A stretch of DNA of 64,000 bases, taken from the NCBI GenBank assembly GCA_016748015.1, contig JAAOMT010000003.1, forward strand, positions 624,373 through 688,372, in the 5' to 3' direction. A model generated the notes under the pieces. The model made no database searches. It had not been told where the DNA came from and worked only from the letters and a program-made list of their open reading frames with translations. Both the position numbers and the translations under genes were made by a program. Source of the stretch: Geosiphon pyriformis uo1. Its lineage: Eukaryota; Fungi; Glomeromycota. This document shows positions 22,081-53,300 of this stretch, piece after piece (position 1 is the stretch's first letter; every line of letters starts with the position of its first letter).

Positions 22081-22493
22081 AAAACTTTTGACTCTTTTTT
22101 AGAAATTTGGAATGAAGAAGAGAAAGAAGTTTTTTCCAATAAAATTCCTGTATCTTTTTGTAATTATTATATAAATATATTAGTTATTTTTGGAAAAAAT
22201 TTAAGTAATAAATTAAAAATTTTTATTTTATTAAATAAATAATTTTAAAAAGCTTTAATTTCTTTAAAATTTTATAAGATTATTTAATTAATGTTTGTTT
22301 TTAAAATTAATCTTAATTAAACTAAAAATTTAGCTATTAATAAAAAATTTTTGATTAATGTTAATTTTTTTTATTAGTTTAATAAGTGAAGCCCAATCAC
22401 TATCTAATACAATACAATTATCTAAATTTCTAAATTAAATGTGATTCATGCTTTTGCTACATGTGACTAACCATTCAGCCAATTAAGACTACA

Positions 22494-27172: not shown

Positions 27173-29060
27173 TGAGATAAAAAAAGAGCTAAAAAACCCA
27201 AACCAGAATACAGATGATTCAATCTTTCCAAAACTGAACCGATTAAGACCTCAAAAGCTACTATTTTTGATTCTAATTTGCCCACCTTGAAGGTCAGAAC
27301 CTTAGAAAAACTTGAGCTAGAGTCATAGACCACATTAACACTAGCTGAAAAAGAAGGAGCAGATGTTAATGTCACATTATCCAAAGCCATATCCACATCT
27401 AAATGTGACACCAAAGAGGTAGGAATGGCTGAAGGAGGAACACTAAAAAGAAGTACTGTTGGTACCAGTTCTATGCAACTTAACTTTTCCAATATGTCGA
27501 ACACCTAATCTATTAAGAGTTTCAAGAAGCATTCTAAAGAGACCAGATGAACACTTAAGGAAGAGTTGTTAGCTGAAGCAAGAGAGGAATTACTGTTTGA
27601 ATTTAAGACACCAGAAAAAGAGAGTCCAGAACTGGAACCAGAACTGAAATGAGAACCACCAGAAAGACCAGCAAATAAGACCACCTGGGTCCAAGTTTTG
27701 CTGTCAAAGAAAGCAGATCAAAAAATCAGAACACTTTTTTTCTTATACAATCTTGCCAACTGAAAACAATACATATCAGAAGCATTTTTTTTAAAGTTTT
27801 TTTCAGAAAGAACAGATACCAGAGTGTCAGAAACATTACATTCTAAAGCTAAGTGTCTAAACTTCCCACACCTTTCACACTGAACCAAGTCTAATCTAGC
27901 CCAAGAAAGTTTCACATTACCAAAAATTGGCTTAATGCAAAATGCAGATTCAAGCTCATTTTCAGATTCAAAACCAACAACGGCACAGTAAGTCCAGTTG
28001 TCAATCTCTAGAGAACAATTGATCACACAAGTTTTCTCACCAGCCTCTTCCAAAAGAATACCAAGATCATGCGCAAATGTTCTCACTGGCAAAGTAAACA
28101 AAAATGCCCTAAAGCAATCTTTAGACATCTAAGTATCCTAATCTCTCATGGCTATAGCCATATATACTGAATTCTTTCCAATAAGGAATAACCATCTTGA
28201 TATCAGTTGCTTTGCCTGCTCCAATTTGGTGAATTTTATCACAGCCTTCTATTACATTCCAATTAGTTGAATCTTAATTGACTTGATATTACCAAACTCA
28301 GAAACTGTGGTAACAATCATCTCCTTAGGCATATCTATGGGAATTTCTTTAATTACTACGGCCCAATCTGAGCAAATTCCTTGTTTTTTGAGATTGCTGT
28401 TTATGTTGATCTCCTTTTCCCTGGCCAATAAAGTGGTTTTATTCATGTTCTCTTTAAAAGTAAAAGTAGATTGGATGATCCCTTCAAATTTTGAGAGGGT
28501 AGTAGCCTTCTCAAAACCATTGATTGTTGAAAAAATCTTTCTAACAAGCTGAGTTTTTGCTGTGACAGATTTGCCTTCTACTGCCAAAAAATTAATATCC
28601 AAAGCAAATAATTTTTTGACTGACACTTCCACTGGAGTCTTAATAATCTTCAGGTTTATTCACTTTTTGTCTAGAAAGATGAGCAAGTGAAGAGGGAGCA
28701 CAATTTCATCATCATCTATATTATAATTGAGGAAACCAAGAGGGGATCCTAGAACAACACCAGTGTTCACTCTTTTTGCCTTGGAAGTATTAGCTGCTGA
28801 GCCCAAAAAAGACCTACTGTCTATACCTTTTATGACAATATTGTCTTCTCCACTACTGAATTCACTTTCCAAATTCAAATACATACTACCAGGACCAGGT
28901 TTGCACAAAAAAACGTCTTTCTTATCACCTAAGTGCTCAATATTGCCTAAAACCACTCTCTTTTTCTGAGAAAAAAAGCCACCAGCAGGACCATAAAAAG
29001 CACTTTTGGGCATCATTTTTTTAGACATATCACCACCCAAAGCAGTCTTTAAATCTACAA
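27169..29060 (-). pseudogene. LINE ORF1, type B (MSKKMMPKSAFYGPAGGFFSQKK...)
   Basis: Fragments 28660-29060, 28252-28632, 27718-28128 (CERCGKFRHLALEC knuckle) and 27169-27504. Confidence 0.9.
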
Positions 29061-29939
29061 TGTTATGGGATAATTTTCTTGTTATATTTAATTGCTGATA
29101 TCCCATTTTAATTGCAATCAGTCTTTCATGAGTTTCTCAATTCTATTTGTGTGATAATGTCACTGTTATACTGAAGGCTTTCTTTTTTACTGTTGCGATA
29201 TAAGTTATTCTTCAATTCTTGATTGTTGTGTGTGTTTATGTACTCCTTTTCAGAGGCTGAACTGAAATCTACCCACTGTTTGGGGTCTTCTCTGAGGCTA
29301 TCCTTGCAATTGCCTGATGTGTTTCTCTAATCTAGAAACACAGAATGTTAATGGTCTTTAGTGCTTTTTTAATTCTTACAATAAAGCTTTTATCAATTAG
29401 TAACAACGTGAATAATCTTGATCAAGGATTATTCTTCCAAGGGATTCAGTTGATGAATAATAGTTTCATTCAATAAATAATACAAGTAAGTTTTTTAATA
29501 CTTTGGGTTGTGATAGTTCAGTTTTAAATATTCTTTTTTATTTCTTTTTGATTTTAAAGGTTTCTTGGGATATTTAATTTGAAAGTATGATTTAAAATGG
29601 AGTTTGTTGGATAAAATTGGATCTATTGCTTGATAAGTTATGATTTTTATTACTTGATTGATTATTTCCCAATATTAAAACTACTGTATATATACATGTT
29701 TGTAGTTCTACGAGAAAACACATTGTAATACTTTCTTTTTTTGATATTTCAACCTGGTGTTTGCTGCTATCACCAGTTGGTGTTGGCTGCTATTGTGAAC
29801 TGGTGCTTGCCACTATCGTGAGATGGTGTTTGCTACTATGTTAATCATTACCTTTCTAAGATTATTACTGTACTATATTATGATTGAATAGTTTGTATTA
29901 TTTTTATGATTCTTTTTGCTAAATTCTTAAACTATAACA
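29061..29939 (-). repeat. 3' LTR of Gypsy A
   Basis: TGTTA...TAACA; about 97.4% identical to 37891-38769 (23 mismatches by manual count, no indels). Confidence 0.97.
29752..29843. repeat. 23-bp tandem repeat (x4) in the U3 part of the LTR (also at 38582-38673; x6 in the solo LTR at 44258-44395)
   Basis: Units acctggtgtttgctgctatcacc / agttggtgttggctgctattgtg / aactggtgcttgccactatcgtg / agatggtgtttgctactatgtta. Confidence 0.85.
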
Positions 29940-29943
29940 TTAG

Positions 29944-29954
29944 CCCCTCTTTTT
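29944..29954 (-). other. Polypurine tract of Gypsy A
   Basis: Minus strand reads AAAAAGAGGGG just before the 3' LTR. Confidence 0.9.
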
Positions 29955-30621
29955 AAGATTGAACTCTGTCAAAATCGAAGTTAATTTCTTCATTAAATTC
30001 TAAGTTACTATAGTGGTTCAATACTGTGTTATTAATTTGTTGTTGTAATTCTTGAAATTGTGAGTTGGTAAGTCGTCCAATACTGTTGGTTGTTATTATG
30101 TTCATGGTTGAGTCCAACAATAATTTGTGACAGTTTTCAAATGCTTTGAAAATTCTGTAAACTGTTTTTGAATGGAATGTAGTGTTGGTTTTTCCAATGA
30201 AAGGTTCTAATAGTTGGATAGTTGTTTTGTCAAACACTTTAGTTGAGTCTTTTGAGTATAATGTTTGTATGTTCAAGTGCTTTTCTAGTTGATAATAACA
30301 GTAATTAATTGGAAATTTCGTTTTTAAGTTGCTAAATGTGTCTGGTGTTAATTCACTTATTTTTATTTCTTCTATTATTAATGTATTGCCCAATGCTATC
30401 TCTAATTTTTCAATAACTTTGCTAATAAATTTGTTGTTATATTTGGCAATATTATATGGTTCGAAATTATGTTCTTTTCTTGTTTTTGGATTTTTTATTG
30501 TTCTTTTTATGTATGTTATTTTGGAGCTATTAACTGTGATTTCTAGATCAGATTTTAATTGTTGTAAGCTTTCAACTAATTGTTGAGTTATATTGTTGAT
30601 GTTTTCTGGAATAAGTATCAT
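29953..30621 (-). CDS. Gypsy A ORF3, uncharacterised 222-aa protein in the env position
   Basis: Intact ORF with aaaacaATG start, ending at the PPT. A decayed homolog occupies the same position in Gypsy C. Confidence 0.8.
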   Translation of the reverse strand: MILIPENINNITQQLVESLQQLKSDLEITVNSSKITYIKRTIKNPKTRKEHNFEPYNIAKYNNKFISKVIEKLEIALGNTLIIEEIKISELTPDTFSNLKTKFPINYCYYQLEKHLNIQTLYSKDSTKVFDKTTIQLLEPFIGKTNTTFHSKTVYRIFKAFENCHKLLLDSTMNIITTNSIGRLTNSQFQELQQQINNTVLNHYSNLEFNEEINFDFDRVQS

Positions 30622-30705
30622 TGTTTTAATTTTGACTGCTATTTTGGAATCTTTTGCATGCGTTTTTATGGTTGTTAAATCATTTTTACTGTAATCTAAG
30701 ATTAA

Positions 30706-32075
30706 TTATCTTTTCAAATAATGTTCAATTAAAACTATTGGTTCTAAATCTTGTGGAATTTGTTCTGGTAGAATTAAAGATAATTGTGTTCCAATTCTGG
30801 GTGTTTTTGTTGTTATTACTGGTTTACTGTAATAGAATTTCAGCCGGTTACCATGTGCTGCTTTTTTTAATATTTTATCATCTAGTCTTAGCTTGTATGC
30901 TCTATTTCCAAGTATTTCATGAATATAAAATGGTCCATCCCACTTGTGATCAAATTTTCCACTCCACTGTTTTTCCATTTTTGTACGATGCAACAATACT
31001 TTATCTCCAATTTTGTAGCTAATTATATTATCTGGTAACTGGTTATCATGTCTCACTTTTTGTTGTTCTTAATATTTTGTGCTGCTTTTCTTCTTTTGTT
31101 TTCTAAAGTTCCCATTAATCCGTATGTTCTTCTAAGTAGTGTTTCCTAGAATGTTGCTTCCATGATAGTGTCACTTGGATAAGTTGGGATAGTAAGTTCA
31201 ACTGGTAATGTGGCTTTTCTTCCATAAACTAGTTCAAATGGTGTGAATTGTGTAATATCTTGTTTTACTGTTCTATATGCTAGTAGTACTGCTGGTATGA
31301 ACAAATCCTATTCTTTTTCATGTTCGTTACTAATTTTTGCCAGTGATTTGCATAATATGTGATTAAATTTTTCAACTAATCCATTTGTTTGAGAGTGGTA
31401 TGATGATGACCGTGGTCGCTTGATTCCAAATTTTTGGTTAAGTTCTTTTAAGGTGCTGTTTATGAAGTGTGTGCCTTGATCTGATAGCAATTTTTGTGGA
31501 CATCCATGTCAGCAAATTAAGTCTTTATGTACAAATTGAGCTATGGAAATAGCATCAGCTGTTTTAATAGCTCTAGCTTCTGGCCATTTGGTGAGATAGT
31601 TCATGGCTACTGCAATATAATGGTTGTTTCTTGTTGTTATTGGTAAGGGTCCAACTAAATCAATTCTGATTCTGTCAAATGGCTGTCCAACTTTTATTGG
31701 TCTTAATAATTCTGTTGTTTTTGCTCCTTCTCTTCATTGGCATGGGTCACAATTTTTTATGTATTGGATTATGTCTGAACTTATTTTTGGCCAATAGTAA
31801 TGGCTAGTTGCATGTTGGATGGTTGCTGTTTTTCCAAAGTGGCCTGAATAAATATCTGAGTGCATGTTAAATAAGATAGTTTCTTTTTCATCCATGGTTA
31901 TAATTCTTAATGGATTATCTGGATTTTGTCGATTCTAGTAATAAAGTATGTGATTTTGGATGAAATAGTGTTTTGCTAATTTTTGGAGCTTAATTAGCTC
32001 TTTTACTGACATTTCTTTGTCTATTTGTAGTGTTTCCAAGTATTGGCTGAGGTTTTTGTAAAGGTGGTTGTTTAT
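30706..32075 (-). pseudogene. Gypsy A integrase, separate ORF (HHCC, DDE core, GPF motif, no chromodomain)
   Basis: MHSDIYSGHFG..CDPCQ; RIRIDLVGPLP; LLSDQGTHF; QTNGLVEKFN; WDGPFYI. A few stops and one frameshift near 31070. Confidence 0.93.
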
Positions 32076-32104
32076 TGTTGTTGTGATGGATGGGTTGGTG
32101 ATTT

Positions 32105-33532
32105 TTATGTGTGTCTCATTCTTGACAAACAGTCCACATTAGCATTTTTGGTACCTTCTTTGTATTTGATAATATAATTATATGGTGCTAACGTTTGTGA
32201 CTATCTGGCGTATTTTCCTTTTAGTGCTTTCTTGTTATTTAACCAGACCAGACCTCTATAATCTGTTGTAATCTCAAAGGGTTGGTACCATAAATATGTG
32301 TCAAAGTGAATACAACTCCAGACTACTGCTAAGCATTCAAGTTCATGTGCTGCGTAGTTTTGTTCTGCCGTACTGAAACTTCTGCTGGCATAAGCGATTA
32401 CACGTTCTCTTCCATTATCATCTTTTTGTGACAGAATGGCTCCAAGTCCAGTTCCAGAGGCATCTGTGGCCAAAATGAATTTCTTGTTGAAATTCGGATA
32501 GATCATTATTGGTGATTCAATGAGCTTTTGTCTAAGGTACTCAAAAGCTTTTTGTTGTGCTTCAGTCCATTCAAACTTCACATTTTTAGATAGTAGGTAA
32601 TTAAGGGGTTTGGCGATGTTTGAAAAGTTTTCTACAAAGCGGTGGTAGTAAGATGCGAGTCCTAAAAAGCTTCTAACTTCTGAAACGTTTCGAGGTACTG
32701 GAAAATTTTTCACTTTGTCTATTTTTGATAGATCTGGTTTTATTCCATCTTTTCCAACTACGTGTCCTAAAAATGCTAGCTCATTTTTCCCAAAAAAACA
32801 TTTTTCTAGATTTAGTTTAAGTCCAGTGTGTCTTAATCTTTCAAAAACTTGTTGTAAATATTGGAGATGATCCATGAATTTTGACGAGAAAACATTTGTA
32901 TCATCCAAGTAGACAACAATGGATTGCCACAAAATTCTGAAGTAAATTACGTTCATTAGTCTTTGGAATGTCGCGGGAGCGTTTGTTAATCCAAATGGCA
33001 TTACATTGAACTCATAATTGCCATTTTGTGTTGTAAATGCTGTTTTATGCCTGTCCTTTGGGTCCATTTCCACTTGCCAGTACTCACTGGTCAAGTCCAG
33101 TGTAGAAAACCATTTTGCTCCTTCAAAAACGTCAAAGATTTTGTCAATTAACAATATTGGGTATGAGTCTTTGGTTGTTTTGCTGTTTAGTTTGTGATAG
33201 TCAATGCAAAATCTAATTTTTCTATTCTTTTTCCTTACTAAAACAACTGGTGAGAACCATGGGCTTATTGATGGTTGTATTATTCCTTTTTCCAACATGC
33301 TTTGGAATTTTTCTCTGATAAAATTATGCTCCATTAGTGGAACACAGTAAGCGCATTGTTTTTCAGGTCTGGCATCTCCAGTGGAGATTTGGTGTTGAAC
33401 CAAGTTGGTTCTTCCAAATTCACCATTTCTTGAAAATATATCAGAGTATTTTAAAATTAATGCTTTTAATTGTCGCTGTTGGTCAGGATTCATTGTTTCA
33501 ATGTTTAATTTGGCCAATTCTTCTGGCGTAAA
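32105..33532 (-). pseudogene. Gypsy A reverse transcriptase and RNase H
   Basis: SPVVLV, RFCIDY, VMPFGLTNAPATFQR, VYLDDT, LATDASGTGLGAIL, ELECLAVVW. One TGG>TAG stop at 32201; the frame ends at SRMRHT* (32105). Confidence 0.96.
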
Positions 33533-36500
33533 TTAATAGCATTCTAATAATTGTTGCCAATTTATTGAAGTGAGTTCACAGTAGAGGGCAATTTCTGAGA
33601 AATTTAGAATTTCTTGTGGTGTTGACGCATTTTCTAGCTCCGTTCCAAGGTATCCAATGATGGTATCTTCCAGAATGTAGACGGGTTCTTCTGTGGTGTT
33701 TGCGATAGGAATTTTTATCCATTGAGCTTTATCAGCTGGAATAAAAAGGTTAGTAAGTCCTATGAGAAACTGTTGGCAAGTTTCTGGGTAGGGCTCAAAT
33801 ATTAGGTCTTTTTCTTTAATTGTTCTTTTTATTCTTATTTCTGATTTTCCATATGGTAGGAGTGTGATGGACCGCTCATTTTTAATTACTTCGCCTTTTT
33901 CCTCTATTGTTTCAGTGAAATTCACTTCAATTCTTTTTTCTGTCGATCCGAAACCAAAAGTTCCTCTCGTTGTTTGTGACAATTCCTCACGATTTTCTAC
34001 TGGCACGAATTTCCCAATTTTTACCAATGGTAGGAAAATTGCTTGTGCAATCTTTTCCTTAGATTCAATGGTATAAGGCTTTTCTGAATTGTTCTGTAGC
34101 AAAACCATCAAATTTCTAGTGTATTTGGAGTCAATTACTCCTCCTTGAATGCTTATTTCTTTTTTCACGAGACTTGATCGCAATGCTATTTGAACTATTA
34201 TTCCTGGTGGAATTTTAACTGCTATTTTTAGGTCGATTTTGATGATGCTCCTGGGTGGTAATGTTGTGGATTGGTCTTCCGGATAATGTAGATCGAATCC
34301 AGCGTCGGTTGGATGGGCTCTTTTGAGTATTATTTCTAAGTGCCTGTTGTCGAAGTATCGGATGTCGGTCATCTGTTCTAAGTTGGTATAGGCTACAAAT
34401 TTTTCTGACTCGAGACCGTCAGGTGAGTCTTGTTGATTTATTGATTGATTTTGAGACTGCTGATTCTTAATTTCCATTTTTCTTTCTAAGTCCCTTTCGT
34501 CTTGACACTTTTCACAGCATTGATTTTGGATGAGACAGTTTTTGCAGAGGTAAGTGTTGATTTGGGCGAAGTATTGTTCTTGCTTTTGTCGAATGAGGCA
34601 TAGTTGTTGATAGTAGTCCTGGAATTTGTCCACTGGGTCGAACATGTTGTAACTGGCAACTTCGTCAGCTACTTCGGCTGACTCTTTCCAATGTTGTATT
34701 TCTTCGGCGGTTCTTCCTCTTACTTTGGCTTGTGTGGTGTTGTACAGCTCATTCTTGTCGTGTGGGTAGTGCTGTAGTCTTTTTAACGCTCTGTTGAATG
34801 CTGCTTCGAATGGCGTTCCTCCTCTTACCCAGTCACAGATGAGGATTGTGTATTGGCAAGTTGCGTCACACGTTCCTCCTCTGTCTGGTATGTCATTCCA
34901 GTTGCACCCTCTTGGTAACGGTTCTCCACAAGCGAGGCATGGTTCCTTGTTCCATTTTCTATGTCTTTTTGGGTAACCGTATTTTTCTTTGTTACAACGG
35001 TTACAATAGTAGTGGGTGGGATTTCTTGGGTCTTTGTCCAGTGCACTGCACGCAGTCATAGACGAGAGTTTCTTCTTGCAAACCAAGCATTTTAGCTTTG
35101 GTCTGCATCGCTGGTGGTTTTTTTGTGAACTTATCTGGTTCCATTTGGATCTTTCTTCGCTGGTCCACATTGGTATGGCTGGTAGTCCTGTTTTTTGGTC
35201 ATCAGCCCAAGAGAGCTGATAGGTTTTGATGGCTGGTAGTGCTGAATTTTCCTCAAATTCGAAGGTAGGTCTTTGGTTGGCGCTGGGTTTTTGGAAGTGG
35301 CCACAGGTGGCTGGAATTTTGGCCTGGTGGCCATTATAATTGATTAGAAGCTCTTGGGTGGTCCAGTTTAGGGTGGCATTGGCTTTTGTTAGCCAGTTAT
35401 TCCCTACTAATGCTTGATATTGTGTAGTGTCCATTACTAATACTTTTGTAGATATTACTATGCTGTTAATTTTGAAAGAGAATGAGTCAATTTCGCCATG
35501 AGGCAGCTTTGTACTTCCATCAGCTATTATGATTTGGGACGTCGCAGCACGATCAACTTTGAAACCCAGTTGGTTTACTAATTGAAGCGTTATGATGCTT
35601 CCAGCGGATTTGCTGTCTAAGATAAGTTTGATTGGGGTATTGTTTACAGTGGCTTCCATATACATAGCAGTAATTGGGCATTTTTCGTCCAATGCTGCTC
35701 CACTGAACATAGTCTTGTTTTTCTCTAATTTAAAAGGAAAAATAGCTGCGAGGCTGCTATCTTCGGTGGCAACTGCTGGTAGTATTGTCTGGCTCAATTT
35801 GGAGAAATTCTTGGTTCTGTTTATGTTTCTACTATCATTGTTTCCGATAATCAGGTTTTCCAGTATATTAAGGTAAGTTTGTTGATAATTTTGGTAGTTT
35901 GGATTGATTTGCTGATTGGTTCCAGCGCAGTTTGGATTCCTCTGAACCAATGCGTTCTGGTTCCACATGAGCTGATTTCGGGCCTCAGGACGCCAATTCG
36001 GGTTGGCTATCATAAGCTGTTGCTGATAAGCTCCTTGATTTTGATATGTGGTGGGATATTGGTGTGGTATTGGCATGTACTGGTTTCTGGGCATTTGAGG
36101 TGGTGCATAGTAATTATTTTTGCATGCTTCCTGCATCATTTGCATTCGACATTGACTAATCAAATGTCCTACACATTTGCAAAAATGGCAGGCACGCATT
36201 TCTGTTCTGAATTCCTGATGCAACGAGTGATTATTTCGACTGTTGCTGACTTCCTGGCTGCGTCTTTGGGGTGGTTGGTATGTATTTTTTTTCAGATCCA
36301 GGATGAGGTAACTTTCTATTTTTTTAGAGAGTTCTTCTCCTAATCGCATTACTCTTTTCTTTAATGTTTCTGTCTTATTTTCCTCCATTACCATGTTAAC
36401 CATTTGACTATAGTTAGCTTCTTTCTCAGCCAATTCAAAGGCTCTGGCGAGTGTAATGGCTTCTGGTAAAGAATTAGGGTGGGCAGAGCATACTCTTCCT

Positions 36501-37807
36501 AAAATGCTGCTTTTTAATCTTCTAATAAACTGATTTAAAACCTGAGAATCAGTGTAGTATCTTTGTTCAATTGCTTCAATCTGATGGCAAATTCGATTGA
36601 ATCGAGCAAGGTATTGGGTGACAGTTTCACCAGTATTTTGCTTGATAGTATTGAATTTGTTCTGTAGTTGGATTATAGTGTTTGGATCGCTAAAATACTC
36701 TAGGAGTGCATTTTTAAATTCGGCGAAGCTCATGGGTTTTGTTTCTAGACTTTGATACCACGAGTTGTCTGTGCCTTTCAGGAAGAAAGGTAATGTTTGA
36801 ATTGCTCTTTGGTCATTCCAGTTATTTGCCTGGATGGCTTTTTGTGCTTCTCTGAGCCATGTGTGCACGTCTATTTCTTCTTCCTCTCTTGAGAAATCTG
36901 TTAGTCTTGCAATGTATGATGTGATCATTTCGTTGCCGTTTTCTGCTGGTGGGTTTATTGGTCTAAGAGGAGGTGAGATGATATTTTCTTGAGCATTTCT
37001 AAAGGTGGCTTCCCTTATATCCAGTTCTTTCTCTTGATCACGAGTTTCTTGGTTTCTGGACTGGCTGCTTGTTCCAGTGACTGGTTTTGTAATTGTTTTT
37101 TCACTGGTTTCTTTTTCAGATTCCGATTCAGACTCCTCTTCACAGTTTTCAAATCCTGTTCTAAATTTTGGCTGAAAAAGAGGGTTTTGGAATAGTGATG
37201 AATATCCTTCTGTAATTGGTATGTCTCCCCAGTTACGTTGTTTAATTTTATCAGTATAACTAGGAGTTTTTGGCATTTGTGGAGTTGATGTTGATGATAA
37301 TGCAGCTCCTAATGGAATTTGTATCTTATTTTCTGGTAAAAAATGGTATGATTTATCTTCTGGTGAATAAATACATTGTTTTTTTATTGATTGAGTGACA
37401 GTTTTCTTTGGCATTTGAGCTGGTGTTCCTAGTTTTTGCTGGTTACTTTCCTGATTAGTTTCTAAATTTTCTTTGGTTTTGTTGGCACGTTCCCTAGTGT
37501 TTCCTGTGGATATTGAAAAATTTTTGTTGGCATATTGCTCAATTTTTTGATGGATTTTGACAATAGTTGTGGCTATTACTGCTACTTCTTTTGTAGTGTA
37601 TTGTGATAATTCTCTATACAATCCAAGTTTTGTGTCGTGTGGTTTTTCTTCCTTTTCTATATGATAATTTATTCTGGCATTGATATAATAAGTGAGGGCA
37701 GATTCTGCTGAACAACACCCTTCTGGTAATCTAAGATCACTTTGATTTTGTGTGTAAATAGCACGGCAGAATTCAAGAACAGTAAGATTAGGGGTTTTTG
37801 TCACCAC
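33533..37807 (-). CDS. Gypsy A gag-protease-Cys-rich domain-dUTPase polyprotein (1424 aa open; in frame with RT across a single TAA)
   Basis: Capsid-like segment (DVHTWLREAQKAI..FFLKGTDNSWY); CHFCKCVGHLISQC knuckle (~36150-36195); protease LILDS(G>K)SAGSII (~35610); dUTPase motifs AGFDL, RSSL, GVIDSKY, IAQ, RGTFGFGST (33941-34330). Confidence 0.93.
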   Translation of the reverse strand: MVTKTPNLTVLEFCRAIYTQNQSDLRLPEGCCSAESALTYYINARINYHIEKEEKPHDTKLGLYRELSQYTTKEVAVIATTIVKIHQKIEQYANKNFSISTGNTRERANKTKENLETNQESNQQKLGTPAQMPKKTVTQSIKKQCIYSPEDKSYHFLPENKIQIPLGAALSSTSTPQMPKTPSYTDKIKQRNWGDIPITEGYSSLFQNPLFQPKFRTGFENCEEESESESEKETSEKTITKPVTGTSSQSRNQETRDQEKELDIREATFRNAQENIISPPLRPINPPAENGNEMITSYIARLTDFSREEEEIDVHTWLREAQKAIQANNWNDQRAIQTLPFFLKGTDNSWYQSLETKPMSFAEFKNALLEYFSDPNTIIQLQNKFNTIKQNTGETVTQYLARFNRICHQIEAIEQRYYTDSQVLNQFIRRLKSSILGRVCSAHPNSLPEAITLARAFELAEKEANYSQMVNMVMEENKTETLKKRVMRLGEELSKKIESYLILDLKKNTYQPPQRRSQEVSNSRNNHSLHQEFRTEMRACHFCKCVGHLISQCRMQMMQEACKNNYYAPPQMPRNQYMPIPHQYPTTYQNQGAYQQQLMIANPNWRPEARNQLMWNQNALVQRNPNCAGTNQQINPNYQNYQQTYLNILENLIIGNNDSRNINRTKNFSKLSQTILPAVATEDSSLAAIFPFKLEKNKTMFSGAALDEKCPITAMYMEATVNNTPIKLILDSKSAGSIITLQLVNQLGFKVDRAATSQIIIADGSTKLPHGEIDSFSFKINSIVISTKVLVMDTTQYQALVGNNWLTKANATLNWTTQELLINYNGHQAKIPATCGHFQKPSANQRPTFEFEENSALPAIKTYQLSWADDQKTGLPAIPMWTSEERSKWNQISSQKNHQRCRPKLKCLVCKKKLSSMTACSALDKDPRNPTHYYCNRCNKEKYGYPKRHRKWNKEPCLACGEPLPRGCNWNDIPDRGGTCDATCQYTILICDWVRGGTPFEAAFNRALKRLQHYPHDKNELYNTTQAKVRGRTAEEIQHWKESAEVADEVASYNMFDPVDKFQDYYQQLCLIRQKQEQYFAQINTYLCKNCLIQNQCCEKCQDERDLERKMEIKNQQSQNQSINQQDSPDGLESEKFVAYTNLEQMTDIRYFDNRHLEIILKRAHPTDAGFDLHYPEDQSTTLPPRSIIKIDLKIAVKIPPGIIVQIALRSSLVKKEISIQGGVIDSKYTRNLMVLLQNNSEKPYTIESKEKIAQAIFLPLVKIGKFVPVENREELSQTTRGTFGFGSTEKRIEVNFTETIEEKGEVIKNERSITLLPYGKSEIRIKRTIKEKDLIFEPYPETCQQFLIGLTNLFIPADKAQWIKIPIANTTEEPVYILEDTIIGYLGTELENASTPQEILNFSEIALYCELTSINWQQLLECY

Positions 37808-37870
37808 TTTTGTCTCTTCTTTTTTAGCAATGAATTATTGCTAATTATTATTTCCTTTTTTGATTTTCTT

Positions 37871-37888
37871 TCCTCATAGGGTTCACCA
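37871..37888 (-). other. Primer-binding site of Gypsy A (TGGTGAACCCTATGAGGA), probably tRNA-Trp
   Basis: Starts with TGG 2 nt after the 5' LTR. TGGTGAACCC is complementary to tRNAs ending GGGUUCACCA, as in plant-type tRNA-Trp; the tRNA assignment is inference. Confidence 0.75.
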
Positions 37889-37890
37889 AA

Positions 37891-38769
37891 TATTACAAGA
37901 TGATTTTCTTGTTATATTTAATTGCTGATATCCCATTTTAATTGCAATCAGTCTTTCGTGAGTTTCTCAATTCTATTTGTGTGATAATATCACTGTTATA
38001 CTGAAGGCTTTCTTTTTTACTGTTGTAATATAAGTTATTCTTCAATTCTTGATTGTTGTGTGTGTTTATGTACTCCTTCTCAAAGGCTGAACTGAAATCT
38101 ACCCACTGTTTGGGGTCTTCTCTGAGGCTATTCTTGCAATTGCCTGATGTGTTTCTCTAATCTAGAAACACAGAATGTTAATGGTCTTTAGTGCTTTTTT
38201 AATTCTTACAATAAAGCTTTTATCAATTAGTAACAACGTGAATAATCTTGATCAAGGATTATTCTTCCAAGGGATTCAGTTGATGAATAATAGTTTCATT
38301 CAATAAATAATACAAGTAAGTTTTTTAATACTTTGGGTTGTGATAGTTCAGTTTTAAATATTCTTTTTTATTTCTTTTTGATTTTAAAGGTTTCTTGGGA
38401 TATTTAATTTGAAAGTATGATTTAAAGTGGAGTTTGTTGGATAAAATTGGATTTATTGCTTGATAAGTTATGATTTTTATTATTTGATTGATTATTTCCC
38501 AATATTAAAACTACTGTATATATACATGTTTGTAGTTCTACGAGAAAACACATTGTAATACTTTCTTTTTTTGATATTTCAACCTGGTGTTTGCTGCTAT
38601 TACCAGTTGGTGTTGGCTGCTATTGTGAACTGGTGCTTGCCACTATCGCGAAATGGTGTTTACTACTATGTTAATCATTACCTTTCTAAGATTATTACTG
38701 TGCTATATTATGATTGAATAGTTTGTATTATTTTTATGATTCTTTTTGCTAAATTCTTAAATCGTAACA
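37891..38769 (-). repeat. 5' LTR of Gypsy A
   Basis: Direct repeat of 29061-29939; adjacent to the PBS. Confidence 0.97.
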
Positions 38770-39169
38770 ATGACAAAAGAGTTGTTATTTAAAAAAATGT
38801 CAAAAAACTAATAAAAAAAAATAAAAAAACTTCTTTTTCAGAAAATGCACTTTTTGAGAATTTTTGGAGATAAGAGAGAAAAAAGTTTGTTAATTTTAGA
38901 TAAATTAATATTAAATCAAATTAAAAATTAATTATCAAAAAAATTTTAGTTAATTTTTTTAAATTAACAGTAACATTAACATTTACCAAATTTAATAAAA
39001 TAAAAACAATAAAGCTATAATTAATTGGTTTTTATCAAAAAACACTAGTTAAATTTAAGAACATTAAAATTATTAATTTGATTGTTTTTAAATAGTTAAT
39101 TTTGTTAAATAAAAACTTTGTACAAGTAACCAAAACAGTTATTAACAAATAAACATAGAACTTTAAAAA

Positions 39170-43300: not shown

Positions 43301-43553
43301 TTGTCAATAATATTGTGTTTTTTAAACTTTATAAATTAAAGCTATTTGTTTCTATGATTTTAAAAATATATAAATTAAATGATTAAAAAAGATTTAGAAT
43401 TTTTTTCTCCTTGAATAGTAAATGCTGTTTTAAAATAATTTTTAGAGTTTATTTTAACTTGTCAGTACCTGTTTTCTAAGTTTAAAGTTGAAAAAAACTT
43501 GGCTTTTTTCAGAGCATTTAGTATATTATTAATTCTTGATAGTTAATAGGCAT

Positions 43554-44479
43554 TTTTATAAGATGGTTTTCTTGGTATATTTAATTGTCAATATTCTGTT
43601 TTAATTGCAATCAGTCTTTTATAAGTTCTTTAATTCTATTTGTGTGATAATATTACTGTTATACTGAAAAGTTTTTTTTTAATGTTATAATGTAAGTTAT
43701 TTTTCAATTTCTTATTTTTGTATATGTTTATGTATTCTTTTCCAAAGGCTGAACTGAAATTTACTTACTGTTTGAAGTTTTCTTTGAACCTATCTTTGCA
43801 ATTGTCTTATGTGTTTTTCTAATTTAGAAATATTGAATATTAATAGTCTTTAGTGCTTTTTTTAATTTTCACAATAAAGCTTTTATCAATTAATAACAAT
43901 GTGAATAATTTTGATCAGAAATTATTCTTTCAAAGAATTCAGCTAATAAATGATAGTTTCATTCAATAAATAATACAAATAAGTTTCTTAATACTTTAGA
44001 TTGTAATCATTTAGTTTTCAATATTTTTTTTCATTTTTTTTTAATTAAAGATTTTTGTGGATATTTATTTTAAAAGTAAAGACTAGAAGGTAATTAAAAT
44101 GGAACTGTTGGCTGAATTGTTTGATAACTTGTTTTTATGATTTGTTTTATAATCTTGTTGAATAATAATATTTTTTTCAATATTAAAATTATTATATATA
44201 TATATGTTTATAGTTTTACAAGAAAACACATTATAATACTTTCTTTTTGGTATCTTAACCTGGTGTTTGCTGCTATTATCAGTTGGTGTTGGCCACTATT
44301 ACCAGTTAGTGTTGGCCATTATTACCAGTTGGTGTTAACTGCTATTATAAGCTAGTGCTTGCCATTATTGTGAGATAATGCTTGCTATTATTATTTTTTT
44401 AGAATTATTACTATGCTATATTATAATTGAATAATTTATATTATTTTATAATTTTTTGCTAAATTTTTAAATCATAATA
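43554..44479 (-). mobile_element. Solo LTR of the Gypsy A family inserted into the RT of Gypsy B
   Basis: Collinear with 29061-29939. Perfect 4-bp TSD GCAT at 43550-43553 and 44480-44483. Removing it rejoins the RT segment at ..IIKDAY... Confidence 0.92.
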
Positions 44480-47400
44480 GCATCTTTAATTATAACATTA
44501 TTCAGTTGTTAATAGTCTACACAAAATTTGAATTTGTTTTTTTTTTTTACAAAGACCACTAATGAAATCCAAAAACTTTTTAATAGTTGGATAAGACTAT
44601 TATTGAGCATTTATTAAACTTTTTCTTTAATAAATTGGTGGCTAGTAAATAGAACTTGGTAGATTTGTTAATATTTTGGTAAAGCATCCCCTGTATGGAT
44701 CTGGTACTATATAGTATTAGTTTTTTTAAGATTATTATTATTTTTGGCAAATATATTAGCATATTTAGCAATCAACTGTTTTAATTGTTTTTGTTATTAG
44801 AATTCTAAGAAACTTATATTGATTTAAAAAAGTTTTTCTTCTAAAATATGGTAGTTTTCAGTAGTAAGAGTGATGTTTGGATTTAAAAATAAGATATGTT
44901 TCACAATTTTAATGAAATTAAAAACAATCTAAGAGATTTTATCTTGGAAAATGTTGCTATATATGATTCTAATTTCTAATTTATTTAATAAAATAATGGG
45001 GTAATTGTTGAAATTGTAAAATATAACTTGAATTTTTTTATTTCTTGTAGAATATAAATATTTAAAATTGTAATTTCATCCTTTAAACAAATTTGTTTAT
45101 TTAATTCAAAGATTTGTTGGGTAGTAGTAGGCTTTAGACAAGTGTAAATTTTATAATGTTTTTTAAAAAGTAAAATGGTAATTGATTAAAACAGTTGAAA
45201 AATCCGATAAAATTTATTTTGTGCATTAAGAACTATATTTACTAGAACTGTAAATTGTCCAGTTAAACCAAAATTTTGGGTTTTTTTTCACTTTTTTCTA
45301 ATTGTTTTCTGTTGTTGACTGATTGTAAATCCAAAATTTTGATTAAAAGTAGGTAGATTGCTTAAACAATTTTTTTAGCATGCTTAATTTTGAATAATTT
45401 ATCAGTTTTATTTTGTATCAAGATTGTAATGTTTTTGGTGTATCCTGTATCTATGATTCCTCTTTTGATGCTAATTTTTTTGCTTGTCAATAATAATTGG
45501 AATGCAATTTAAATCATTGCTTTTGGTGAAATTTCAAAAGCAATTTTTAAGTTGATTTTTGTCAAAAATTTTGGTTAGGAGACCAAAGTGTTTTTTTTTG
45601 AGTATTATAGATCATATTCAGCATTTATTTTGTGGGCTTTTTTTGGTCTTATTTTTTGTCTATTGTTGTTGAAATATTGGAGTTGTATAATAGGCTGATT
45701 TTCTATAAAATAGATTGAAATTGTTGTAATTTTTTCTTTTGGTTTAGGTTTTTCAAATTCAATTTTATATTTATTATTTTTATTGAACAAGAAAATACTA
45801 ATTACATAGTATTTTAAACACTATTAGTTATTACAAAACATAGTATATTCTTTGCATAATTGAATGTTCATTTGCTTTAATTGTTGAATTTGAGCTTTTT
45901 TGGTTAGATAGGCATAACTTGTAATCTGATAGTATGTTTTTACTTCATTTTTGTAATCAAATTCAGCTATTTATTGTATATTTAATGTATTCTGTTTTTT
46001 TCATCTGACATATATCTTCTTGGGTTTCTCTATTGATTAAAACTATGGCCAATTCATAGATTATTTTAGTATTATGTGGATAATAATAGAGTTTATTAAG
46101 GATGTTATTATATGTTGCATTGAAAAAAGTTCTTTTTTTTACTTTTTTGCAATTAAAAATGCATATTAACAGGTTGATTACAGACTCTTTTTTTTATTGC
46201 AACATCAATCTAGTTGTATTTTTTTAATAACATTTTTTTATATATAAAACAAAGAATATTATTTTATTTTCCACTTTGTTTAGAATATCTGAATCGTTTT
46301 TTATAGCATGTCTTACAAAATAATAGATACATGTTTTATATTTTTCTTTTGGAGATATGTATACTCTCATAGACAAAAGCTTTTTGTTGCAATTTTTGCA
46401 TGTTAAGTAGAATATAAGATGGTTGTTTTTATGGTTTTGGTATAAAATATTAAACAACATTCCATTTTCTGGTTTTTTTAAAAATTTTTTGCTTTGTTTT
46501 CTTAGCTCAATTGGATGTTAATCCAAAAGCCATGTATGTTTTAATAATTGGCATTTTTTTTTTAAATTTAAACACCAAGACTTTTTCAGATTGTTTGTTA
46601 AAAGTACCACAGATAATAGATACTTGGATATATTGTCCTTGATATAAAATTTTTAATTCTTGTGTTTTTCAGTTTAAGTTTGCATTGGCTTTAAGAAATC
46701 AATTATTTCTGATAAAAGCTTAGTATTAGAGTATATCTATGACAAAAACTTTAATTGAAATAGTAATTCTATTAATAGTAAAAAGAAAGTTGTTAATTTT
46801 TCTTACTGAGGTCTTTTTTATACTATCTGTAATAACAATAATTGTTTTGGCAGATCTGTCAACAGTTTGTTGAAACTGTTGTATTAATTGATAGATAATA
46901 ATACTACCAGTAGATTCATTGTTTAAAATTAATTGAATTGGTTTTTTTTCAACTTTAGCTTCAGTATATATTGCTGTGATTGCTTTTTGTTTATTAACTA
47001 CTATATTACTAAGTAAAAATAGTAATTTGTTGTCCTTAAATTAAATAAAAATATATCTGAAAAATTAGCATTTTGTGTAATTTGGGTCGATAGAATAGTA
47101 TTATTGAAAAGATTTGATTTTGATGCTGTAGCTTTATCTTCAGAAAGTACAGTTTATTAAAAATTCGACTTTTTTAATATTGTAAGATAATTGAGTTAAG
47201 TATGGTAATATACAGGTTTTTGCTAAACTGGGTTTTGGAGAACTAATTAATTGTTGAGATTGAATTAATTATTGTTAGAAAACCAATTTTGTAATATAAA
47301 TTGGTTTTGTTGGCTTGATTGTTAAACAGATATTTGATATTATTAAACAAGTGATTATTGATATTGTTTTTGAATAGATTGTAGAGCAAATTGATAGTAA

Positions 47401-49029
47401 TTATTCTAATATTAAGGTCTTAATAAATAATAAGCTAGTGGTGGAAATTGGTAATGAGATTGTTGAGATTGAAAATAATGTTGATTATTTCTTTGTTGTT
47501 GATCTTGTTGCATTTTTTGACAATCTTGTTTCCAGTATTCAGAAATTCCACAATAGTAATAACTTTAAGATTGATTGTTTAGTGATGATATGTAGTTATT
47601 TTAATTATATTATTGGAGTGATTAATATCTTTGTTGTTGCTATTATTGTTAGTTAATAAAGTAATTTTCAACTTTCTTGGTTAATTGATCAATCATTTTT
47701 TTAGCTGTTAAGCTGGTTTCTTTAATTGTGAAATTCACAAGTTTGGTGCAGTTAACTTCTTTTATTGTCATTTTATAAGCCTTAGCATGTTAAATAACAG
47801 TGACTAGATTTGCTAAAGCATATGGTCAAACTTTTTTAATGAGTTTGTTTTTTAATCTCACAATAAACTAATCTAAAATCTGGACATTAAAATAGTAGTC
47901 ATTGGTTTTCAATTGTCAAATTTATTGAAAAAATTTGTTAAACCTCCTAAAATAAGTTATAACAGTTTTGGATAATTTTTGTTTGATATTATAAAAATGG
48001 TTTTGAAGAGTAATAAAAATGTTGTTGTTAGTAAATTGTTCCAAAAAAGCATCTTTAAATGCTTGACAGTTTTCAAAAAGTTCAGTCAAGTTTTTAAACC
48101 ATTTTTCTACTGTTTTTTGAAGAAAATATGGAATTGTTTTTAATATTCTTATTGTATTCTATCTATTTACATCTTTTGCTTTTTGGATTTTATTAAGCTA
48201 TTTTTGTAGACTAATGTTAACATTTTCTTTAGTAAATTCAGTAATTTTTGTAATATAAGCAGTTGCTATGTTTTTTGTATTCTTGTTTTCAGTAATTTTT
48301 TTTGTAGATTCAAAAATACTTTTATTGTTATTGAAATAATTGCTTTGGTTTTTTGCTAAAAAATTGAGAAGATTGGTGCTGATAAAAATTTGTTCAGACT
48401 GTTATATTGGGCTTTTTGGTAATGTAAAATTTTCTGGTCTTAAAAAACAAATTAATAATAAATTGGGTGTTTGTGGTTAAACAAGTAAAATTGAGAATGG
48501 TGTGATTAAAAGTGGTAATTTGATACTAGTTTTTTGTTTAAGTGTTTGTAGATATTTGGCAATTACTCTTAATGTATTATATACAATATGACTAGTTTAT
48601 GGTGTTTTTATTTTCTGCTTTCTTTTATTGCTATTTTCGAATTCTAATTCAAAGTTGAAAGAGTATTTAGACTATACTAGATATTTTTCCTTACAATATT
48701 GAATAATATTAAAATTAAGTTTTTTAAAATAAGTGTTAAGTATTTTACTGTTAAAGTTTTCAGTTTCTAAGCAAAAATAGTATATTAGATTTTTGTAAAG
48801 ACTTTTTTTGATTTCTGAAATATTATAGTTTCCAAAAAAATAATTGTTAATACAATTTTTAATATATTAGTATAGTGATTTTTTAAAAATTTCAATTCCG
48901 TCTGGAATATTAAATTTTTGCTTGCAGTAATTGTAAATTAACTAATAATATTTTAGAGTTGTTGTGTCTAATTTAATTACTATTTTGAAGTTGTTATTGC
49001 TGTGTTATTTTTGTAAAAAGAGCACTAAA

Positions 49030-49930
49030 GATTATCAGAGGTTTTTGGTCTTTTTTTTAAAATTATGTTAATGCCTATTTGCTATAAATTCATGTTTATT
49101 GAAAATTATTGAATCTCTGATAACTGAATTTATTTTCAAATTATTTCCTATAATCTGAACTGTTGAGTTTATATATGGAATAACCAATTCTGTACCAGTT
49201 ACTATATGTAGTTATTTTATAGTAAAAGTTAACTTTTTCTTAGAAATTGCTTATCTGGAAGTTCACTAAAATGTGTAGTTATTTTGCTGTAAAAGTCAAT
49301 TCTTTTATAAAAATCTTATTTGTAGACTATTCTAATGATTATAACAAAAAAATAAAGAGAAATAAAAAAAATATAAAAAAAATAGAATTTTGTTTAAGGA
49401 AATTATTTTTTGGTTTAGATCTGAAATTACTAACAGATTACTGAAATTTGGTTTTCAAGTATTTGACGTTTTTATTACTTTTTGTAAAGTTAATTAATTT
49501 GAATTAAAATAATTCTGGATAAGATACATTTTTTCAAAAAAAGAAGTTTTTCTTTTATACAATTTGTTATAGTACTAGTCTATAAACTTGAACTTTCTTT
49601 TTTGCTATAATTTCAATAAACTAAAAGATATATTTCGACAAACTACAAGTTATTTCAATAAACTATTAACTTTTTTGGTGTATTATTCATTATTTTGGTG
49701 AATTTCTACAAATTTGGCAAATTTTTGAATGTTATATAGTTTAGAATATTGTGTAATTTAATCATTCTAATTTCTATTATATAAATTAGATTATTAATTA
49801 AATAATAATATTTGATAGTTTGGTTAAATGATAAGTAATAATTTGAGATTATATTAATATATGCTAATTAATAATAAGAATTATAAAGGTAATTTCATGC
49901 TAATTAATAGTTAAAATTCTACTGATAATA
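49030..49930 (-). repeat. 5' LTR of Gypsy B
   Basis: Reverse-complement homolog of 56587-57539. Confidence 0.88.
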
Positions 49931-50360: not shown

Positions 50361-53300
50361 GTATTAACAACCATCAACTTAACAATACCAAACATCTGTC
50401 CAAAGATTAATTTAACAAAACTAATTTACACCACAAAATCAGTTTTTTAACAATAATTGATTCAATTCTAACAACTATTTAGTTTTTCGAAATTTGGCTT
50501 AATAAAAGCCCATATATTATCATACTTAACTCAATTATCTCACAATATTAGAAGAATCATATTTTTAACAAACTGCTCTTTTTGAAGATAAAGTTATAGT
50601 ATCAAGATCAAATTCTTTCAACAATACCATCTTATCAATCCAAATTGCCCAAAATACTAATTTCTTAGATATTTTCTTATTTAAATTTAAAGCCAATGAA
50701 TTATAGTAATATAACAATCAATAAGCAAAAAGCAATTACAGTAATATATATTAAAGCAAAAGTTAAAGAAAAACCAATTTGACTAATTCTAAATAGTGAA
50801 TTTACTAGTAGTATCATCATCTACTAACTAATACAACAGCTTTAATAAACTATTAACAAATCTGCCCAAACAATTATTGTTACAGCCAATAATATGAAAA
50901 AAACTCCAATAAGAAAAATTGACAACTTTTTCTTTATTATTAATGAAATTACCATCTAATTAAAGTTCTTGTCATAAATGCACCTCAATACCAAGTTCTT
51001 ATTAGAAATAATTAATTTCTTAAAGCCAATACAAACCTAGATTAGAAAACACAAGAATTAAAAATTTTATACTAAAGACAATATACATAAATATCTGCTA
51101 TATGTAGTATATTTAATAAACAATTTAAAAAAACCCCAGTATTTGAATTTAAAGAAAAAAAAAATGCCAATTATTGAAACATATATGGCTTTTGAATTAA
51201 CATCTAATTGGACTGAGGAAACAGAACAAAAAATTTTTAAAGAAACCAGAGAATAAAATGTTGCTCAATATTTTATACCAGAATTATAAAAACAACTATC
51301 TTATATCCTATTTAAATACAAAAACTGCAACAAAAAACTTTTATCAATAAGAGCATACATATTTTTAAAAGAGAAATATAAAACATGCATCTGTTATTTT
51401 TGCAAGACATGCCATAGGAAACAATTCAGATACTCCAAATAAAATAGAAAATAAGACAATATTTTTTGTTTTATATGTGAAGAAATATTACCAAAAGAAT
51501 ACAACTGAATTGATGTTACAATAAAAAAAAAAATCTGTAATCAAATCTGTCAATATGCATTTTTAATTACAAAGAAAGTAAAAAGAAAAACTCTTTTCAA
51601 TGCAACATATAACAGCATTCTTAACAAACTTTACTATTATCCACATAATACTGAAATAATTTACAAACTGACTATAGTTTTAATCAATAAAAAAACCCAA
51701 TAAGATGTATGCCAAATGAAAAAAACAGAGTACATTGAGTCTACAATAGAATTAGCTGAATTAGATTATAAAAATAAAGTAGAAACATACTACTAGATTA
51801 CAAATTATGCCTACTTAATTAAAGAAGCTTAAATTCAACAATTAGAACAAATAAATATTCAATTATATAAAGAATATACCATGTTTTGTAATAACCAATA
51901 ATGTTTAGAATGCTATGCAATTAGATTTTTTTGTTTAGTAAAAATAATGAATACAAAATCAAATTTGAAAAACCTGAACCAAAAAAAAAATTACAACAAC
52001 CCTAATTTACCTTATTAAAAATCAGTCTGTTATAAAACTCAAATATTTTAACAACAATGAATAAGAAATAAAACCAGAAAAAGCTCATAAAATTGATGCT
52101 AAATATAATTTACAATATCCAAAAAAAAACACTTTGGTTTTTTAACCAAAACCTTTGACAAAAATCAATCAAAAATTGCTTTTAAAATCTTATCAAAAAC
52201 AATGATTCAAATTGCTTCCCAATTATTGTTGGCAAGCAAAAAAATTAATGTTAGAGGAAAAGTCATAGATGCAAAATACACTAGAGACATCACAATCTTG
52301 TTACAAAATAAAACTGACAAATCATTCAAAATCAAACATATTGAAAAAATTGTTTAAGCAATCTATTTACCCTTAATCAACATTTTAGATTTACAATTGG
52401 TTAGCAACAAAAAACAATTAAAAAAAAGTGAAAGAAGAACCCAAAGTTTTGGTTTAACTGGACAATTCACAATTCCAGTAAATATAATTCTTAATACACA
52501 AAACAAATCTTACCAGATTCTTTGATTTCCCCAACCAATTACTATTTTATCTTTTGGAAAACATTACAAAATTTACACTTGTCCAAAGCCTATTACCACT
52601 TAACAAATCTTTGAATCCAATAAACAAATCTGTTTAAAGCATAAAATCTTAATTCTAAAAAAAATGAAAAAATTTGGAATTATCTTTTATAATTCTAACA
52701 ATTATCTTAATATTTTATTAAATAAAGTAGAAATTGGAATTATATATAACAACATTTTTCAAAATAAAATCTCTTAGATTGTCTTTAATTTCATTAAAAT
52801 TGTGAAATATATCTTATTTCCAAATTTAAACATTATTTTCACTACTAAAAACTACCATATTTTAGAAAAAAAACTCTTTTAAATCAACATGAATTTTTTA
52901 GAACCTCAACAATAAAGACAACTAAAACAGTTAATTGCTAAATATATTAATATATTTGTGAAAGACAATAACAATCTGGAAAAAACTGATATTGTTTAAC
53001 ATTAAATCTATACAGAAGATGCTCTACTAAAATGATAATAAACTTACTAAGTTCTATTTGCCAGCCACCAATTCATCAGAGAAAAATACAGTGAATACTT
53101 AACAATAAACTTATACAACTATCAAAAAGCTCTTGGGCTTCATCAGTAGTCCTTATTAAAAAGAAAAATTACAAAATCAAATTTTGTGTAGACTATTGAC
53201 AACTAAATAATATTATAATTGAAAATATCTATACACTACCAAAAATTGACAACATGCTAAATGCTTTAAGAAAAGCCAAGTTTTTTTCAACTTTAACTTA

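Follow-up and report, generated by a model that had tools for sequence, protein, structure and literature searches.

Retrotransposons with long terminal repeats (LTRs), like retroviruses, are believed to package integrase (IN) by producing it within Gag-Pol. Gmr1-type Gypsy elements place the integrase unusually, before the reverse transcriptase (RT), and DIRS elements carry their integrating enzyme in an open reading frame (ORF) separate from that for RT and RNase H (RH). In the available portion of one survey, a dUTPase lies between protease (PR) and RT in Tmt1 of Tuber and PosPlaTy3-5 of Postia (PMC2864245), and the accessible text on the planarian element Burro places one there too (PMC6431247); the dUTPase captures were judged independent (PMC2864245, same portion). 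Here we describe element A, a mutated Gypsy-type LTR retrotransposon of 9709 bp (minus strand, 38769-29061) in a 64,000-nt stretch of the Geosiphon pyriformis uo1 genome (contig JAAOMT010000003.1, positions 624,373 to 688,372; hereafter the window), a genome of which LTR elements make up 41.2% according to the part of PMC11952901 available. Its integrase is a gene of its own, separate from the frame that ends with RNase H, and a small third ORF follows it.

Element A shares with Ty3/Gypsy elements (Metaviridae) LTRs starting with TG, a primer-binding-site (PBS)-like stretch, a polypurine tract (PPT), the order PR-RT-RH-IN and an HHCC/DDE/GPY-F integrase, the profile of which finds Ty3 Gag-Pol as its best sequence match among solved structures (E 7e-50). 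It differs in that the integrase lies outside Pol, has its own Met start and is followed by a conserved non-env ORF3. Because the integrase of element A and its relatives is not encoded within the Pol polyprotein, as it is in canonical Gypsy elements, element A is, judged from sequence, a Gypsy-derived variant and not a canonical Ty3/Gypsy member. The nearest Gypsy elements appear to be the YPYY-motif group including Athila/Tat, DGLT-A and Gypsy-1-I_RO, and the free integrase has the same motif set as that described for Ginger1 and the Athila/Tat-related group in the accessible part of Bao et al. 2010 (PMC2836005). With Ginger1, as that part describes it (PMC2836005), element A also shares a free Gypsy-like integrase of about 400 aa, TGT termini and a 4-bp target-site duplication (TSD), yet element A has gag and RT, direct LTRs and no terminal inverted repeats, and in trees with proxy sequences for Ginger1 the two do not appear to be sisters. 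Tmt1 and PosPlaTy3-5, compared by description only, have one or two ORFs with no free integrase reported in the available portion (PMC2864245). Element A has the PosPlaTy3-type chromovirus trait of a dUTPase in Pol (PF00692 between PR and RT), and no chromodomain was matched by Pfam in its integrase or the following frame, nor in the 120 free-integrase homologues listed. The integrating enzyme in a separate ORF is shared with DIRS (available part of bioRxiv 10.64898/2026.05.21.726589), whose enzyme is a tyrosine recombinase; in element A it is an integrase of the DDE type, and the element also encodes a protease and is flanked by direct LTRs. Unlike in Gmr1, the integrase of element A is not upstream of RT, and Gmr1-type loci (L061, L069) branch far away; nor is its ORF3 a membrane glycoprotein of the errantivirus type.

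A full-text literature search, with Repbase, GyDB and REXdb outside its scope, found no account of Gypsy elements that, as a group, keep the integrase in an ORF of its own, nor of the structure of these fungal elements, and a term search of the supplement of PMC11952901 gave no mention of integrase or dUTPase. It is rather unlikely, though an appreciable chance, that the layout already stands described in Repbase, GyDB, REXdb, the Tmt1 or G. pyriformis genome papers, or subscription journals.

The RNase H-integrase junction in element A and its family

The coding part of element A is organized as follows (window positions):

32105..37834, minus: ORF1 frame, gag to RNase H (Pfam, motifs; two decay stops)
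36910-36422, minus: gag domain (Pfam)
35656-35387, minus: protease (Pfam/motifs)
34490..35092, minus: Cys-rich insert, about 200 aa (no family match)
33941..34330, minus: dUTPase domain (PF00692, E=1e-21)
33238-32759, minus: RT (Pfam, RVT_1)
32569-32120, minus: RNase H (Pfam, Ty3-type)
32076..32104, minus: 29-nt spacer, RNase H stop to integrase start (sequence; RNase H stop without a majority change)
30706..32075, minus: stand-alone integrase with HHCC, DDE and SH3/GPY-F tail (Pfam, motifs, majority of run X1)
29953..30621, minus: ORF3 proper, 222 aa, from ATG 30621 to the PPT (soluble, predicted helical)

An initial annotation, made from the window alone, had proposed a single gag-PR-Cys-rich-dUTPase-RT-RH frame, a separately framed integrase and, after it, a third ORF that stops at the PPT. 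Pfam supports the domain order, with RVT_1 and a Ty3-type RNase H within PR-RT-RH-IN and, by motif inspection, a CCHC knuckle after gag, and all ORF1 domains lie in one frame; this copy, however, interrupts it with two stops, at 33535, where homologues carry Gln, and at 32203, within the RNase H domain. The integrase is indeed framed separately, at -1 after the RNase H stop. In this copy it holds five stops, its start has decayed to ATA, and a 10-nt deletion at 31070 displaces its SH3/GPY-F tail (PF24626) to the third frame. The third ORF does end at the PPT as annotated, but its frame also holds the shifted integrase tail, and ORF3 proper begins at ATG 30621. With two stops in the long frame, five in the integrase, an ATA in place of its start and a decayed protease motif, copy A is dead.

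The family to which element A belongs retains the integrase start and the ten bases that this copy has lost. In run X1 (21,211 contigs aligned to element A; majority threshold 55%; depth does not equal copy number), the integrase start is ATG in 67801 of 71063 depth (95%), and the ten bases at 31070 are present in 10945 of 14876, marking the deletion as copy-specific; the inferred family integrase is 459 aa long. No change of at least 55% occurs at the RNase H stop or the integrase stop (30708), with the neighbours 32090, 32136, 30693 and 30716 covered, and such a missing majority change is weaker evidence than a recorded one, as four of the five stops inside the integrase likewise have none.

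Two further decayed copies, B and C, lie in the window:

50379..57539, plus: copy C; PR to RH, separate integrase, ORF3 homologue, PPT, 3' LTR
54290, plus: RNase H stop of copy C
54352, plus: decayed integrase start of copy C
56065-56554, plus: ORF3 homologue of copy C
56574, plus: PPT of copy C
56587-57539, plus: 3' LTR of copy C
43403..49930, minus: copy B; 5' LTR, gag, PR, Cys-rich insert, dUTPase, RT start; truncated

The LTRs of copy C are unlike those of element A, and in it an RNase H stop is likewise followed by a decayed integrase start in the same phase. The claim that the B/C family repeats the whole layout stands in that copy C has RNase H, integrase and ORF3, but copy B ends within RT near 43403 and copy C lacks the 5' part of gag. 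RNase H and integrase are unfused in the family majority, in copy C and in all ten clade loci described below, so that the layout is no copy-specific accident, as the initial annotation had held; neither a consensus with RNase H fused to integrase nor an unconserved ORF3 was found.

A clade with a free integrase and a third gene

A protein search with the integrase gave 774 matches; among the best 120, an initial Met is present in 115 and the HHCC His lies 66-73 aa into the protein in 91, and the five species-named integrases among the matches listed are from Rhizophagus. When longer proteins were searched, 5 of the 120 matches listed scored above 330 bits. Three of these are fungal gene models whose junction lacks the integrase start, and the two of them with RNase H also lack its end; the layout thus misleads annotation, with fungal gene models joining RNase H to integrase over the gap. 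Viral contigs gave only two weak integrase fragments.

Metagenomic loci extend the picture. From 534 relatives 80 were kept, and 22 holding both RNase H and integrase were examined: the two are separate in 13 and fused in 9. In the RT tree, ten of the separate loci cluster with element A and L030 falls elsewhere; two (L032 and L046) look like broken copies of fused families. The split is seen in 10 of 10 clade loci that hold the RNase H end and the integrase start, with phases 0, 1 and 2 all occurring; gaps span 30-727 nt in the nine clade loci measured, seven of them falling within 30-163 nt and the other two at 365 and 727 nt. A stop-start overlap at the junction was rejected given these gaps. 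Free integrases occupy one side of a branch in three integrase trees, with Shimodaira-Hasegawa-like approximate likelihood-ratio test (SH-aLRT) support of 99, 94/98 and 80/98, the last two from reduced sets; the references in all trees are unnamed or organism-named matches and not curated GyDB, REXdb or Repbase sequences. In relatives L003, L006, L010 and L020 the LTR terminus is followed, as in element A, by a TGG site, which marks them as LTR elements rather than DNA transposons. As far as these alignments and trees indicate, the split between RNase H and integrase is clade-wide and real and not a matter of copy decay, and the lineage with a free integrase is wider than first supposed.

One LTR-bounded relative (L020:505-9450) has four ORFs, namely gag-PR, RT-RH with a 580-aa tail, integrase and ORF3, and also separates RT from gag-PR, by a 33-nt gap. 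Long, acidic, Cys/His-rich extensions without a Pfam match follow RNase H in L010:3503-4438 and L020:4951-6702.

ORF3 is the second component of the clade. Among 1.84 billion representatives searched it has 41 matches; of the ten looked up, eight are from G. pyriformis and two are intact metagenomic proteins of 230-234 aa. An ORF of 119-230 aa occupies this position after the integrase in 11 of 21 loci with more than 300 nt downstream, with integrase-to-ORF3 gaps of -4 to 129 nt, one overlapping. The copy C homologue matches at E 7.5e-29. A hidden Markov model (HMM) of the window-type ORF3 alone misses the metagenomic ORF3s; only the reverse HMM, built from the metagenomic proteins and matching 5 of 42 proteins, and the profile-profile comparison (hhalign P 87.7%, E 3.4e-6) link them to the window type. 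That ORF3 is not an env gene, as first proposed, is borne out by the absence of a Pfam match and of any transmembrane segment, the largest 19-aa hydropathy window being 0.34-1.29 over 15 proteins of 119-234 aa. Its predicted model is mostly helical (predicted local distance difference test, pLDDT, 79); at E 0.001 Foldseek matched it to nothing in the PDB or among viral models (best VIA Z 4.8), an absence that is no proof of a new fold. On sequence and model, the ORF3 proteins appear to make up a conserved family, soluble and helical, that matches no Pfam family or known fold. A C-terminal extension of the integrase was considered for ORF3 and rejected, since stop 30708 is unchanged in the majority and the ORF3s of relatives have their own Met and occur in all phases. 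The end of ORF3 takes two forms, as the frame either stops just short of the PPT or continues through it into the LTR (window 29940-29975 and homologues), which suggests that the DNA signal is retained whatever the frame.

The Cys-rich insert and the dUTPase have a much narrower distribution. The insert was rightly annotated as about 200 aa and Cys-rich: aa 915-1115 contain 17 Cys, whereas elsewhere there are 3.1 per 200 aa. It is conserved at about 30-40% across subfamilies named G. pyriformis, and its predicted model (pLDDT 59) has no fold match (best Z 5.9); a likeness to the Cys/His-rich tails of L010 and L020 was rejected (P 1.9% and 0.5%). The dUTPase of element A contains five segments that resemble dUTPase motifs. 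For the combined Cys-rich-dUTPase piece, 116 of the 120 matches listed are from G. pyriformis, at up to 91% identity, and the other four are JGI proteins, a distribution that makes this fungus or a close relative the likely host of the element; more than 100 G. pyriformis hypothetical proteins match the dUTPase region. Neither feature was found in the 82 loci scanned, four of which are clade members that span PR to RT (L010, L014, L020 and L021). The two features would therefore not define the group, being almost wholly restricted to one species and absent from these four loci, and are, as their distribution indicates, later, lineage-restricted additions. This revises the initial proposal that the full five-part combination is diagnostic: free integrase and ORF3 define the group, and the dUTPase and the Cys-rich insert are nearly confined to Geosiphon. 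With the free integrase and the new ORF3 family as its marks, the group represents a genuine variant of the Gypsy architecture that extends across the clade, for which we infer the mechanism given below. Between dUTPase and RT, a segment of about 130 aa (window 33937-33545) is also conserved; it may be a second, degenerate dUTPase-like fold.

Proposed expression and delivery of the integrase

The LTRs, the TSD, the domain order, the RNase H stop, the Met start of the integrase and the third ORF are all seen both in the family and among its metagenomic relatives. Of 19 integrase starts, 18 are preceded by an in-frame stop at a distance of 4-24 codons, the remaining one running off its contig, and 15 have a strong start context, compared with 22 among 109 internal ATGs (p 1e-6). 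Together, the upstream stop and the strong start context argue that the integrase is likely initiated afresh, and the variable phase and spacing of the junction fit no single frameshift or read-through rule. The 365- and 727-nt spacers hold 7 and 12 upstream ATGs, respectively, which favours a start near the AUG over scanning from the RNase H stop. With a probability of roughly three in four, element A is a decayed Gypsy copy whose integrase is a gene of its own with its own AUG, followed by a small conserved third gene, and the integrase is likely made from a fresh start near that AUG and not by polyprotein cleavage.

In part of the group the integrase start lies beside a 43-nt RNA hairpin, which has a bulge of 11 nt and a loop of 8 nt that is conserved. 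It occurs in 9 of 33 related loci, in each just upstream of the integrase ATG (within about 12 nt), at the following locus positions:

L005:20-62, hairpin
L006:583-625, hairpin
L009:183-225, hairpin
L010:4461-4503, hairpin
L011:488-530, hairpin
L017:173-215, hairpin
L019:6-48, hairpin
L023:490-532, hairpin
L029:17-59, hairpin

The hairpin covaries strongly: seven of its ten pairs change on both sides, and none of 500 shuffles reaches its covariation score, a lenient control given that the structure was derived from the same sequences. Folding the sequences one at a time gives weak z-scores in 7 of 8 cases, no Rfam family matches above noise, and viral contigs hold no match. Pattern matches in prokaryotes (26) were rejected, as only 2-4 of 6 stem positions pair.

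Several observations weigh against a clade-wide free integrase with its own start. P0124 is a true in-frame fusion of RNase H and integrase inside the clade, and P0125, also fused, enters the clade in one integrase tree with unstable placement. RT-RH trees recover the same clade with modest support (SH-aLRT 90, 73/9 and 90; the second omits the long branches L030, L064, L050 and L065, and the third additionally the short L002 and L003). The first integrase search was confined to a protein length of 186-594 aa, and Met is where gene callers begin. Part of the +4 G signal in the start-context score stems from a conserved second residue. Six of the seven short spacers, and that of element A itself, lack an upstream ATG, which also fits reinitiation. 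The hairpin is absent from this window and from 24 of the 33 loci; eight of its nine matches served to train the model, and of the nine L010 alone has RT-RH on the same contig. ORF3 was not seen in 10 of the 21 loci with sufficient sequence downstream, and no sense-strand transcript or protein was seen, in runs that are not recorded as RNA.

On the reading that the integrase starts afresh, the full-length RNA would give Gag-PR-(Cys-dUTPase)-RT-RH, which would build the particle as usual, with the dUTPase, where present, keeping uracil out of the cDNA as a later addition. Integrase and ORF3 would come, by a slight balance of probability, from a shorter RNA or by internal ribosome entry, and in one sub-lineage the conserved hairpin beside the AUG would set the integrase start. 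A free integrase could not enter the particle on Gag-Pol and would have to be brought in by recruitment in trans or else encounter the cDNA inside the nucleus. Because ORF3 follows the integrase across the clade, it is a candidate for bringing the integrase to the cDNA, and by this position it might, in a speculative and rather doubtful assignment, serve as an adaptor or targeting factor. We only tentatively suggest that the whole is an undescribed LTR lineage across arbuscular-mycorrhizal-type fungi, with an independent integrase (set by structured RNA in one branch) that a new ORF3 family would bring to cDNA or target. A lineage that encodes its integrase apart, at variable spacing, must solve expression and delivery otherwise, which opens to test the question of whether the particle needs to contain integrase. 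Such a lineage further shows a route by which a Gypsy integrase may become a free gene, a step called unclear for the origin of Ginger1 in the accessible part of PMC2836005.

Among the alternatives, polycistronic reinitiation survives best, although we consider it unlikely. Ribosomes on the full-length RNA would restart at the integrase AUG after the RNase H stop and again at ORF3; the short gaps of seven of nine loci, mostly free of upstream ATGs, agree with this, as do the close spacing of integrase and ORF3 and the 33-nt gap between gag-PR and RT in L020. The 365- and 727-nt gaps with their many upstream ATGs do not, and eukaryotic restart after an ORF of more than 1400 codons is inefficient unless a special signal assists.

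Splicing makes the third ORF of many Gypsy elements, and a spliced sense RNA could likewise yield the integrase here, which we regard as improbable. The joints seen in contigs of runs X2 and X3 (described below) are only partly listed, with 13 given and 41 more, leaving room for a sense-strand splice; none of the 13, however, has sense-strand intron ends, and the spacers have no common acceptor, the last AG lying at -7 to -58 and being absent from two of nine loci and from element A.

Still less probable is that the free integrase is a Ginger1 transposase recruited into, or leaving, an LTR element, as in a Ginger1-Gypsy intermediate. It would account for the N-terminal extension, HHCC, DDE and GPY/F as described for Ginger1 in the accessible part of PMC2836005, and for the 4-bp TSD. 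RT-less integrase proteins with PHD or UCH tails rank directly behind the clade, and free, plant-type and Ginger-like integrases share one branch (100/99). Free integrases, however, cluster with fused Athila-like integrases (94-96) and not with Ginger-like ones, labels that are our own, presumed from domain content and motifs. An approximately unbiased (AU) test of free and Ginger-like integrases as a clade gave p 0.125 (LG+G4) and p 0.019 (mixture model), with proxies standing in for curated Ginger1 sequences. The trees appear to place free integrases nearer fused plant-type ones, and we do not claim a direct link to Ginger1.

Finally, decay or assembly error in an ordinary fused RH-IN Gypsy is very improbable: copy A is rich in transitions and has a real copy-specific frameshift, L032 and L046 look like broken fused copies and gene models P0121 and P0122 appear fused, but the family majority retains the RNase H stop and has ATG, open stop-free relatives (L001, L010, L020) are equally split, and the fused gene models lack the RNase H end and the integrase start, as a predicted intron would give.

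Termini, decay and neighbouring sequences

The ends of element A, and a related solo LTR, lie at:

37891..38769, minus: 5' LTR, 879 bp, TGTTAC start, decayed end
37872..37888, minus: PBS-like stretch starting TGG, 2 nt past the 5' LTR (sequence)
29940..29954, minus: PPT (sequence)
29061..29939, minus: 3' LTR (LTR self-comparison)
29057..29060, no strand: 4-bp TSD copy, partner copy 38770-38773 (empty-site joint and flanks)
43554..44479, minus: solo LTR of A type within copy B (exact 4-bp TSD)

Element A has the Ty3/Gypsy hallmarks of direct LTRs with TG...CA ends (partly decayed in this copy), a PBS-like site and a PPT, and its LTR ends confirm the annotated TGTTAC-type termini. The two 879-bp LTRs are 97.8% identical, with transitions accounting for 22 of 23 differences. 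The annotated 4-bp TSD is supported by a run X1 contig that spans the empty site, with a joint 29056 -> 38770 skipping 9713 nt (the element's 9709 plus 4), and by the exact 4-bp duplication flanking the A-type solo LTR at 44479-43554; the flanks of element A itself are not identical (TCAT vs TTGT) and fit only a decayed CpG-centred site.

Transitions also make up 693 of 715 differences to element A in run X1. Fifty-two transition sites are distributed over the dinucleotides CG (18), CA (13), CC (11) and CT (10); with transitions in all dinucleotide contexts, the decay is methylation-driven or resembles repeat-induced point mutation (RIP) and extends beyond CpG.

On the plus strand of the window, antisense to element A, contigs of runs X2 and X3 (two studies) share joints within 29485-38017 that are absent from run X1. 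Eight of the 13 joints listed have canonical GT..AG ends on the antisense strand, with donor and pyrimidine-tract signals (chance 0.004 each), and the letters of copy A hold no long antisense frame. These joints likely reflect a non-coding antisense RNA, spliced at several places and derived from a copy with few mutations, runs X2 and X3 not being recorded as RNA. Contigs of the same runs also join 30039 to 33565 across ORF3, integrase, RNase H and RT (3525 nt, non-canonical ends), possibly a deletion derivative retaining gag to dUTPase.

Another retroelement family, showing matches to RT and RNase H, is present as decayed copies on the minus strand at 890-5700, 15400-29045 and 57600-59950. 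These copies have no match to the proteins of element A and are probably like long interspersed nuclear elements (LINEs). Element A sits inserted in the end of one copy of this family.

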